In this document: positions 43,488 to 45,959 of the stretch, in pieces
Position numbering within the stretch: the first letter of the stretch is position 1
Layout of the letters: every line of letters starts with the position of its first letter
Source of the DNA: a virus
Taxonomy: Duplodnaviria > Heunggongvirae > Uroviricota > Caudoviricetes
IMG/VR virus record: IMGVR_UViG_651053021_000003
Strand: one strand, 5' to 3'
Length of the DNA: 47,598 nucleotides
Notes under the pieces: generated by a model
Told to the model about the DNA's origin: nothing
The model's database searches: none
Seen by the model: the letters and a program-made list of their open reading frames with translations, nothing else
Position numbers and translations under genes: made by a program

Positions 43488-45959
43488 ATGAGTAAAGTTT
43501 TTATTTGCGCCGCTATTCCTGACGAACTGGCAACAAGGGAAGAAGGCGCTGTGGCTGTAGCCACAGCCATTGAAGCTGGCGACGAACGCCGTGCTCGAGC
43601 AAAATTTCACTGGCAATTCCTGGAACATTATCCGGCTGCTCAGGACTGCGCTTATAAATTTATTGTCTGCGAGGATAAACCTGGCATACCCCGCCCTGCC
43701 CTCGATTCATGGGATGCTGAATATATGCAGGAAAACCGCTGGGATGAGGAGTCTGCTTCTTTTGTCCCGGTTGAGACTGAATCCGATCCGATGAACGTCA
43801 CTTTTGACAAGCTGGCCCCTGAAGTACAGAACGCTGTCATGGTTAAGTTCGACACATGTGAAAACATCACCGTTGATATGGTGATTAGCGCGCAGGAATT
43901 GTTGCAGGAAGACATGGCAACATTCGACGGACATATCGTTGAAGCGTTGATGAAAATGCCAGAAGTTAACGCCATGTATCCGGAGCTTAAGCTGCATGCC
44001 ATCGGGTGGGTTAAGCATAAATGTAAGCCTGGTGCCAAATGGCCCGAAATTCAGGCAGAGATGCGCATCTGGAAAAAACGTCGCGAAGGTGAACGCAAGG
44101 AAACCGGAAAATACACGTCTGTTGTTGATCTCGCCCGCGCCAGAGCCAATCAACAGAACACTGAAAATTCAACAGGAAAAATCAGCCCGGTCATTGCTGC
44201 CATTCATCGCGAATACAAGCAGACATGGAAAACACTGGATGACGAACTGGCCTACGCTCTCTGGCCTGGTGATGTGGATGCCGGAAACATTGACGGCAGC
44301 ATCCATCGCTGGGCAAAAAAAGAAGTTATCGACAACGACCGCGAAGACTGGAAGCGTATCTCGGCATCAATGCGCAAACAGCCTGATGCCCTTCGCTACG
44401 ACCGCCAAACTATTTTTGGCCTTGTCCGTGAGCGTCCGATCGACATTCACAAAGATCCCGTAGCACTGAACAAATATATCTGCGAATACCTGACGACAAA
44501 GGGCGTGTTTGAGAATGAAGAAACAGACCCGGGCACTGTTGATGTTCTCCAGTCATCAGAAACACAAACTGATGCAGTGGAAACCGAGGTATCTGATATC
44601 CCAAAAAATGAAACCGCGCCGGAAGCTGAACCATCTGTAGAGCGTGAGGGGCCGTTCTATTTCCTCTTCGCAGATAAGGACGGAGAAAAATACGGTCGCG
44701 CAAACAAACTTTCTGGTCTGGATAAGGCACTGGCTGCTGGCGCCACTGAAATCACAAAAGAAGAATATTTTGCCCGAAAAAATGGCACATACACGGGCTT
44801 ACCGCAAAATGTAGATACCGCTGAAGATTCAGAACAACCAGAGCCGATAAAAGTTACCGCTGACGAAGTAAACAAAATTATGCAGGCAGCCAATATCAGC
44901 CAGCCTGACGCCGATAAGTTGCTTGCTGCATCACGTGGTGAATTTGTTGAAGGGATTAGTGACCCGAATGATCCGAAATGGGTTAAGGGGATCCAGACCC
45001 GCGATTCTGTGAACCAGAACCAGCATGAATCGGAACGGAACTACCAAAAAGCGGAACAAAACAGCCCAAATGCGTTACAAAACGAGCCAGAAACGAAACA
45101 GCCTGAACCAGTGGCGCAACAGGAAGTGGAAAAAGTCTGCACCGCCTGCGGTCAGACCGGCGGCGGCAACTGCCCTGATTGTGGCGCGGTGATGGGCGAC
45201 GCAACATACCAGGAAACATTCGATGAAGAGTATCAGGTTGAAGTTCAGGAAGATGATCCGGAGGAAATGGAAGGCGCTGAACATCCACACAAGGAGAACA
45301 CTGGCGGCAATCAGCATCACGATAGCGATAATGAAACTGGCGAGACGGCAGATCGCTCAATTAAGGTGAACGGTCATCACGAAATCACATCCACCAGCAG
45401 GACGTGTGACCATCTAATGATCGACCTTGAAACTATGGGAAAAAATCCTGATGCCCCGATCATCTCAATAGGTGCAATATTTTTCGATCCGCAAACCGGA
45501 GATATGGGACCGGAATTTAGTAAGACTATCGATCTGGAAACTGCTGGCGGAGTCATTGATCGGGACACCATTAAATGGTGGCTTAAGCAATCACGCGAAG
45601 CGCAATCTGCCATTATGACCGATGAAATCCCGTTAGATGATGCACTGTTACAATTGCGGGAATTTATCGACGAAAACTCCGGTGAATTTTTTGTTCAGGT
45701 CTGGGGAAATGGAGCCAACTTCGACAACACGATTTTGCGCCGTTCATACGAGCGGCAGGGGATCCCCTGCCCGTGGCGTTACTACAACGATCGCGATGTA
45801 CGCACAATCGTTGAGCTGGGGAAAGCCATAGACTTCGATGCCAGAACGGCTATTCCATTCGAAGGTGAGCGCCATAATGCACTTGATGACGCCCGTTACC
45901 AGGCAAAATACGTTTCAGTTATCTGGCAAAAACTGATCCCGAGTCAGGCTGATTCTTAA
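43488..45959 (+). CDS. Large early-operon protein (823 aa) with C-terminal DEDD-type 3'-5' exonuclease domain (YdfE-like)
   Basis: C-terminal ~190 aa has DnaQ-like motifs ([32 protein letters not shown]); central acidic region with CxxC...CxxC; position of Qin ydfE. Confidence 0.7.
   Translation: [823 protein letters not shown]

Follow-up and report, generated by a model that had tools for sequence, protein, structure and literature searches.

The lambda Red and RecET recombination systems pair a 5′-3′ exonuclease with an annealing protein. RecE (exonuclease VIII) of the Rac prophage, a protein of 866 amino acids (aa), ends in a PD-(D/E)XK 5′-3′ double-stranded DNA exonuclease (residues ~600-866) and is encoded next to recT, the two genes usually overlapping; its N-terminal region has no known function (PMC11611040). 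Nucleases of the DEDDh class include T4 DexA (227 aa), which takes part in the scavenging of DNA and in the homing of introns, where double-strand breaks are repaired (PMC12153337). In 2025, Kang et al. (NAR, PMC12153337) reported that DexA alternates between a dimer and a tetramer, which cut 5-hydroxymethylcytosine (5hmC)-modified and unmodified DNA, respectively, and that EcD, the Escherichia coli DexA homologue (189 aa), cuts 5hmC DNA only and protects against T4 when supplied from a plasmid. DnaQ-like 3′-5′ nucleases also belong to lambdoid Rec modules (epsilon34 and g341c type), and the survey by Zheng et al. 2025 (Genome Res, PMC12315714) names, without analyzing them, sporadic DnaQ-type nuclease genes 'very near int' and RecE-like proteins lacking a nuclease, termed 'RecE-2'. 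Here we analyzed an ATG-started, 823-aa open reading frame (ORF) at positions 43488-45959 (+ strand) of IMG/VR record IMGVR_UViG_651053021_000003, a stretch of 47,598 nucleotides that is referred to throughout as the window. Across the gene, the window matches both the E. coli LF82 chromosome and Escherichia phage Tritos (OV696610.1) at 100% identity; its source is Tritos, an intact Qin-type lambdoid prophage of strain LF82. We conclude with high confidence that the protein belongs by its modular architecture to the RecE (exonuclease VIII) family and departs from RecE only in the catalytic head. As judged from sequence, the RecE PD-(D/E)XK 5′-3′ nuclease and its partner gene recT are replaced by a DexA/Rv2179c-like DEDDh head (Table 1).

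The initial annotation had assigned the C-terminal ~190 aa to a DnaQ/DEDDh exonuclease, and both the assignment and the motifs that it quoted were borne out. Pfam family PF16473 (Rv2179c-like 3′-5′ exoribonuclease domain) matched residues 642-813 over profile positions 2-177 of 177, scoring 226.6 bits against a gathering cutoff of 27 (E 2.2e-67). The head contains the motifs DLETMG (aa 646-651), FDNTIL (aa 745-750) and HNALDDARY (aa 796-804), and when three family members and T4 DexA were aligned with it, the residues D646 and E648 (Exo I, DxE), D746 (Exo II) and H796 and D801 (Exo III, H-x4-D) were invariant. These residues are kept in all family members compared, which are 52-99% identical, and are the same in DexA and EcD, members of the same DEDDh subfamily. 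The only solved structures matched by sequence were 8kel and 8ken, both of T4 DexA (PMC12153337). When the AlphaFold model of the whole protein was searched with Foldseek, T4 DexA again ranked highest (E 1.5e-7), with RNase T, oligoribonuclease (Orn) and ERI1 next, and every one of these matches had a probability of 1.00; the head itself was modelled at moderate confidence, with a predicted local distance difference test (pLDDT) score of ~50-90. Its identity is 38% to EcD (E 2e-37) and 28% to DexA. DexA and EcD are standalone proteins, whereas the Tritos DEDDh domain is the head of a multidomain protein. Together, these comparisons identify the C-terminal domain as a predicted DEDDh 3′-5′ exonuclease with a complete catalytic set.

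AlphaFold models based on alignments of the family (mean pLDDT 73.7 for the whole protein, 87.6 for residues 1-440) contain three confidently folded modules (aa 1-220, 245-345 and 385-435), then a largely disordered stretch (aa 440-640) and finally the DEDDh fold. The first ~350 aa had been described as uncharacterised and we identified no characterised function for them: the N-terminal scaffold gave no informative structural match in PDB or BFVD, and a comparison of the YdfE-type N-terminus with that of RecE by hhalign reached a probability of 60%, a weak and suggestive match. Homologues bear precomputed Pfam assignments PF27430/PF27432 on this region. The helical core that follows ('N2') was found by local BLAST in 46 of 66 long representatives of the family, spanning all head types and with a clear conserved motif, and the small domain after it is 52-100% identical across Escherichia, Erwinia and Pantoea members. 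When the protein was compared with K-12 RecE by BLASTP, residues 262-625 aligned with RecE 278-591, and residues ~472-622 (RecE 455-591) were nearly identical. At the DNA level the latter segment (~450 bp) has ~90% nucleotide identity to K-12 Rac recE, with abrupt borders on both sides. Beyond RecE residue ~591, where the RecE nuclease domain starts, no similarity to the protein was found. The NCBIfam RecE equivalog model NF007259 scored 290.8 bits, below its cutoff of 1269, and matched well only over residues 453-625. The protein was at first held not to be RecE-like, a view that does not survive these comparisons: the zinc ribbon and acidic linker lie within the segment that is common with Rac recE, and the helical core is a hallmark of the RecE family. 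The Tritos protein and RecE are of similar size and have in common the helical core, the linker motif, the zinc ribbon and the acidic tract; they differ in the first ~220 aa, which are of another sequence type in RecE, in the head, and in the presence of an adjacent recT.

Several short elements lie within the disordered stretch. A linear motif whose consensus begins [KR]QLAAxRGE[YF] is kept in members that carry a DEDDh head, a PD-(D/E)XK head, a Rad52-like head (see below) or no head. The CxxC...CxxC element (aa 551-566) and the acidic region noted at the outset are both present, the latter with 29% D+E and a net charge of -15 over residues 575-640. The zinc ribbon has no confident fold in the AlphaFold model; it is restricted to RecE and YdfE proteins of the E. 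coli lineage and missing from most family members. A prophage Dam-like DNA methyltransferase of 326 aa ends in the same ribbon (C[NT]ACG..GGG.CPDCG.V.GDATY; last ~30 aa, BLASTP E 9e-13), which looks like a portable element carried by different phage DNA enzymes. In one 527-aa relative (P0004), scaffold residues 1-368 are joined straight to a DEDDh head with no tether, linker motif or zinc ribbon; since this deletion variant lacks the whole tether, the tether may be dispensable for folding.

To place the protein in its family, we searched 1.8 billion cluster representatives with residues 1-345, exhaustively and without a profile, which yielded 169 relatives; a protein homologue search with the same residues returned only near-identical E. 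coli fragments. Sixty-six long relatives, the representatives referred to above, were sorted by local BLAST against reference modules. The helical core proved to be the common denominator of the RecE family. The ~220 aa N-terminal to it are either of YdfE type or of RecE type, and the protein ends in a DEDDh head, a RecE-type PD-(D/E)XK head, a third domain of ~270 aa or, in a few members, no head at all; all four combinations of N-terminus and nuclease are present among the 66. We then surveyed neighbouring genes in phage records and in loci from one genome per species. An immediately following recT was seen in 6/6 PD-(D/E)XK-headed members and in 0/6 DEDDh-headed members (the window counted among the latter), and DEDDh-headed members have dicB-ydfD upstream and xis/int downstream. 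One locus in a metagenome-assembled genome (L093, JAGTSE010000010.1, 6311-9274) encodes a 987-aa protein whose first ~440 aa are 87-98% identical to the Tritos protein; it carries a RecE-type nuclease head and is followed by RecT, RalR and Rac-type xis/int. The match of the scaffold, combined with a RecE-type nuclease and RecT, indicates a recent exchange of the head together with its partner, and the L093 protein is in effect a naturally head-swapped counterpart of the Tritos one.

The third head matched no Pfam family above threshold. Its most recurrent weak match was Rad52_Rad22, obtained below threshold for 8/10 members (best E 0.003), over the signature region where this was inspected; a profile of the head found no Rad52 match among PDB sequences. 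Judged from the recurrent sub-threshold matches, the third head is probably a scaffold-fused annealase. Members with this head include P0130, P0133, P0139, P0146, P0154, P0158 and L096:6362-8635, and have in common the block KKSLTDAIKKALS.LGFSADV.LGLYD; PHROGs name such proteins 'exonuclease' (phrog_2489, phrog_7838), and the gene that follows in L096 encodes a Sipho_Gp157 family protein. In Shigella phage 75/02 Stx, the gene for a headless member of 682 aa immediately precedes gam-recT-exo. We infer that the headless and third-head proteins are the 'RecE-2' proteins of Zheng et al. (PMC12315714). The 'RecE-2'/phrog_2489 proteins have the N-terminal domain, core, small domain and linker motif in common with the Tritos protein and have no nuclease head; most end in the ~270-aa third head and others in a short tail before Gam-RecT-Exo.

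The Tritos gene product is 100% identical to LF82 WP_000048352.1 ('exonuclease') and to TRITO_27, and phrog_2082 covers it from end to end. With the K-12 ydfE pseudogene the protein shares 99% identity over residues 1-256, as far as the IS2 junction; the comparison with the truncated ydfE of Qin that had been proposed thus identifies the protein as the intact form of YdfE. In the annotated records the gene order is a CI-like repressor, ydfA, ydfB, ydfC, dicF, dicB, ydfD and the ydfE-type gene, then xis and int. The ydfE-type gene is thus the last of the dicB early-left operon, in a region that adjoins the host gene rspB and corresponds to the Qin locus. Upstream coordinates in Table 1 were taken from the Tritos/LF82 annotation and shifted to the window by an offset of 35487. 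In a scan of its surroundings, promoters and terminators were no more numerous than expected by chance. The slot near xis and int is the same early-left slot that recE occupies in Rac, and also the position of the DnaQ-type genes 'very near int' mentioned by Zheng et al. (PMC12315714).

Table 1. Features of the ydfE-type gene and its surroundings; positions refer to the window unless another locus is given
Feature	Position	Strand	Evidence
Full-length ydfE-type gene, RecE-family scaffold plus DEDDh head	43488..45959	+	ORF; identity to WP_000048352.1 and TRITO_27; phrog_2082
YdfE-type N-terminal domain (aa 1-220) with alpha/beta subdomain and helical bundle	43488..44147	+	AlphaFold pLDDT >90
Helical core 'N2' (aa 231-345), similar to RecE 278-360	44178..44522	+	Local BLAST; pLDDT 92-98
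Small beta-beta-alpha-beta-alpha domain (aa 385-435)	44640..44792	+	pLDDT 90-97
Mosaic segment in common with Rac recE (aa ~472-622), mostly disordered	44901..45353	+	DNA alignment; pLDDT <60
Short linear linker motif (aa 476-499)	44913..44984	+	Found in 15 diverse representatives
Zinc-ribbon mini-module CxxC-x8-CxxC (aa 551-576)	45138..45215	+	Nearly identical in RecE
Acidic low-complexity tether (aa 577-640)	45216..45407	+	Composition; pLDDT 29-52
Predicted DEDDh 3′-5′ exonuclease head, Rv2179c-like/DexA-like (aa 642-823)	45411..45956	+	PF16473, catalytic residues, Foldseek
Chi site inside the ydfE-type gene	45391..45398	-	Active orientation on phage map
dicF small RNA	about 42791-42843	+	Tritos/LF82 annotation
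dicB	43018-43206	+	Tritos/LF82 annotation; translation
ydfD	43203-43394	+	Tritos/LF82 annotation; translation
xis	46032-46283	+	ORF list, annotation; starts 72 nt after the gene
int	46303-47598	+	ORF list, annotation
Prophage Dam-like methyltransferase with zinc-ribbon C-terminus	L125:5187-6167	-	BLASTP

The recombination functions of the phage as a whole were then considered. No RecT is encoded between the ydfE-type gene and xis, no annealase is annotated in Tritos and none was found among its hypothetical early proteins, and the phage has no RecBCD inhibitor. In this it differs from phages of the epsilon34/g341c type, whose nucleases (~180 aa) lie between erf-ssb and abc2: Tritos has no annealase, single-stranded DNA-binding protein or anti-RecBCD gene, and its version of the nuclease is fused to the RecE scaffold. 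In the P22-like phage g341c the standalone DEDDh protein in that recombination module is 56% identical to the Tritos head. The window contains 11 Chi sites (GCTGGTGG) against 1.46 ± 1.32 expected, a number reached in 0/100 shuffles; they lie at positions 21731, 29587, 33310, 33362, 33768, 33826, 33952, 36896, 40557, 40602 and 45391. Nine of the 11 are in the active orientation, all on one strand, and eight of these nine fall in the right 42% of the phage map. Zheng et al. (PMC12315714) tie a Chi-rich pattern without a Rec module to RecBCD-dependent lambdoids, and the Chi richness of Tritos fits this class as described there.

Based on these observations we tentatively favor a role for the protein, the likeliest of those considered, as a 3′-end-processing DNA exonuclease that would be delivered by the RecE-type scaffold after induction. 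From its position in the operon, the gene would be silent in the lysogen and expressed once the prophage is induced. The scaffold and tether would then position the head, either at DNA ends or on a partner protein. There the head, like DexA and EcD, would use two-metal catalysis to digest DNA from its 3′ ends, and so trim the 3′ tails or flaps of intermediates that arise in phage replication and recombination. RecBCD requires near-blunt ends. In one version of the model, 3′-tailed ends would be blunted so that host RecBCD could load, leading to RecBCD-Chi-RecA recombination. The lack of an annealase and of a RecBCD inhibitor, together with correctly oriented Chi sites, makes 3′-trimming for host recombination the most likely form of this role. 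In contrast to the lambda Red and RecET exonucleases, the Tritos head belongs to a family of the opposite polarity (3′-5′) and the phage has no annealase, and the protein is unlikely to be half of an exonuclease/annealase pair. A link to recombination is also suggested by the association of head type with RecT, the headless member before gam-recT-exo, the Rad52-like matches of the third head, the g341c relative inside a recombination module and the part that DexA plays in intron homing. The proposal in the initial annotation that this could be a recombination nuclease is therefore supported by context; the anti-defence function offered beside it found no direct support, the nearest tested relative, EcD, being reported as a defence protein (PMC12153337).

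Several points weigh against 3′-end processing for recombination. The Pfam family of the head is named after an exoribonuclease. Zheng et al. (PMC12315714) note that 3′-5′ exonucleases of E. coli as a rule inhibit, rather than aid, recombination. Active-orientation Chi sites number 7 and 12 in two other DEDDh-type phages and 5 and 6 in two RecE+RecT phages, so that Chi content fails to separate the DEDDh type (7-12, n=3) from the RecE+RecT type (5-6, n=2). The scaffold has no informative structural relative, and a targeting role for it is therefore a guess. Finally, several lineages have lost the gene, which the host, and perhaps the phage too, can therefore do without.

The close relationship of the head to EcD raises the main rival explanation, in which an HREX/EcD-type nuclease would serve in defence or superinfection exclusion, selectively degrading incoming modified (e.g. 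5hmC) phage DNA and protecting the lysogen. The dicB operon has been linked to phage resistance through DicB, which likewise speaks for such a role. EcD degrades T4 DNA, spares unmodified DNA and protects against T4 (PMC12153337), and it too is encoded in a prophage early-left operon. Using a published primer, we located EcD in viral contigs as a standalone protein of 189 aa with the reported Ala78; the idea that it is a C-terminal fragment of a Tritos-type protein was rejected, as the two are distinct. Its gene (L125:6401-6991, - strand; also L104, L109, L119, L120 and L122) lies in an operon with the order repressor, small ORFs, EcD, small ORF and Dam-like methyltransferase, and from this setting the natural role of EcD may be a phage early function rather than that of a chromosomal defence gene. 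However, the residues on which EcD and DexA specificity is reported to depend are not simply carried over to Tritos. Of the two DexA residues reported for 5hmC recognition, W152 and D169 (PMC12153337), the first is replaced by Tyr in the Tritos head (PWRYYNDRD), and the second lies in a region that aligns poorly, its equivalent not being reliably alignable, with D782 and D784 nearby. The tetramer-linked Asp of DexA (D90) is Ala78 in EcD, a change said to limit activity to modified DNA (PMC12153337), and is retained in Tritos as D718. Given the W152-to-Tyr change and the retained D718, the specificity of EcD cannot simply be transferred to the Tritos protein. Moreover, a gene in a repressed early-left operon would be off in the lysogen, a PADLOC scan produced as its sole match a generic Cas-associated DEDDh model (E 2e-5), and a role confined to defence leaves unexplained the fusion to a RecE scaffold on which the head alternates with RecE+RecT and a probable annealase. 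We therefore regard a defence nuclease as unlikely.

An RNA-directed or anti-defence enzyme, one that would degrade RNA, nucleotide second messengers or retron multicopy single-stranded DNA (msDNA) at induction, appears less likely still, and we consider it improbable. The head family takes its name from the Mycobacterium tuberculosis 3′-5′ exoribonuclease Rv2179c, the structural neighbours include RNase T, oligoribonuclease and ERI1, and early-left operons of temperate phages often hold counter-defence genes. On the other hand, the closest characterised relatives, DexA and EcD, are DNA exonucleases (PMC12153337), neither the neighbourhood nor the family gives a tie to a defence system, and the fusion partners are all recombination enzymes. 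Nothing phage-related was found in the literature on Rv2179c.

The gene is visibly mosaic and is broken in several prophages, which brings up the possibility that lambdoid mosaicism produced it as a mere by-product, a chimera without function that travels as a fossil with the dicB-int region. Independent losses have occurred in K-12 Qin through IS2 (L004 5079-5999) and in Shigella flexneri through frameshifts (L095 6603-8551), and in the enterohaemorrhagic E. coli (EHEC) O26 PPompW prophage (L132, PPompW_EH1846, 1632-4099) the gene is likewise broken by a frameshift. A copy covering at least 80% of the gene was nevertheless found in 3536 of 5426 complete E. coli genomes (about 65%); among genomes with any match, the median number of matching places was two. 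A locus search of viral contigs returned 80 near-identical copies, the basis of the intactness statistics, and 62 of the 63 full-coverage IMG/VR copies are intact, with an ORF of 822-830 aa. Codon differences were counted over 51 distinct alleles, the counts being rough because alleles share ancestry: synonymous and non-synonymous differences numbered 474 and 170 in the N-terminal domain and 178 and 47 in the DEDDh head, against 92 and 218 in the linker/middle region (aa 441-640). This pattern fits constrained folded domains linked by a loosely constrained tether, with the N-terminal domain and the head under purifying selection. Wide occurrence, intact copies and the synonymous excess together identify a maintained gene and no chance ORF. 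With the catalytic residues kept, and the same architecture recurring with either N-terminal type, a functionless chimera is very improbable, the least likely of the explanations considered, and 3′-end processing by a scaffold-delivered exonuclease remains the reading that we prefer.

Elsewhere in Tritos, the region ~34300-41000 (TRITO_38 to TRITO_41), between the replication genes and Q, encodes an opposite-strand 444-aa FRG-domain protein. It also encodes a HokD toxin and an ImmA/IrrE metallopeptidase with an XRE helix-turn-helix (HTH) domain. These genes are possibly moron or defence-type cargo.

The gene is already annotated in thousands of genomes and is a PHROG and Pfam member, and DnaQ-type nucleases in lambdoid early-left operons were described in 2025 by Zheng et al. 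(PMC12315714). Public labels for the protein range from "exonuclease VIII, ds DNA exonuclease" to "3'-5' exoribonuclease", neither of which covers the whole of it. In the literature searched, which included the accessible text of Zheng et al., we found no functional or experimental study of ydfE and no description of the DEDDh-RecE scaffold fusion, of head swapping with its RecT correlation or of the probable annealase-headed class. These observations concern one of the commonest E. coli prophage genes, present as a near-full-length copy in roughly two of every three complete genomes, frequently alongside several related copies; in K-12 the only copy is broken, and the gene has therefore escaped genetic study. 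RecE is a mainstay of recombineering, yet the function of its N-terminal two thirds is unexplained. Full-length RecE boosts linear-linear recombination. Natural head swaps on a scaffold common with RecE therefore offer a direct route to the function of that scaffold. We speculate that the RecE scaffold may be a general delivery platform on which temperate phages exchange heads (a 5′-3′ exonuclease, a 3′-5′ exonuclease or a Rad52-like annealase), and that the DEDDh version might represent an unrecognised, host-dependent recombination strategy in which a phage lacking both an annealase and a RecBCD inhibitor uses its own 3′-5′ exonuclease to prepare ends for RecBCD-Chi-RecA, although we consider this broader view unlikely as it stands. 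If the head instead proved to be EcD-like, most E. coli strains would hold a latent nuclease against modified phage DNA, which would be relevant to phage therapy.

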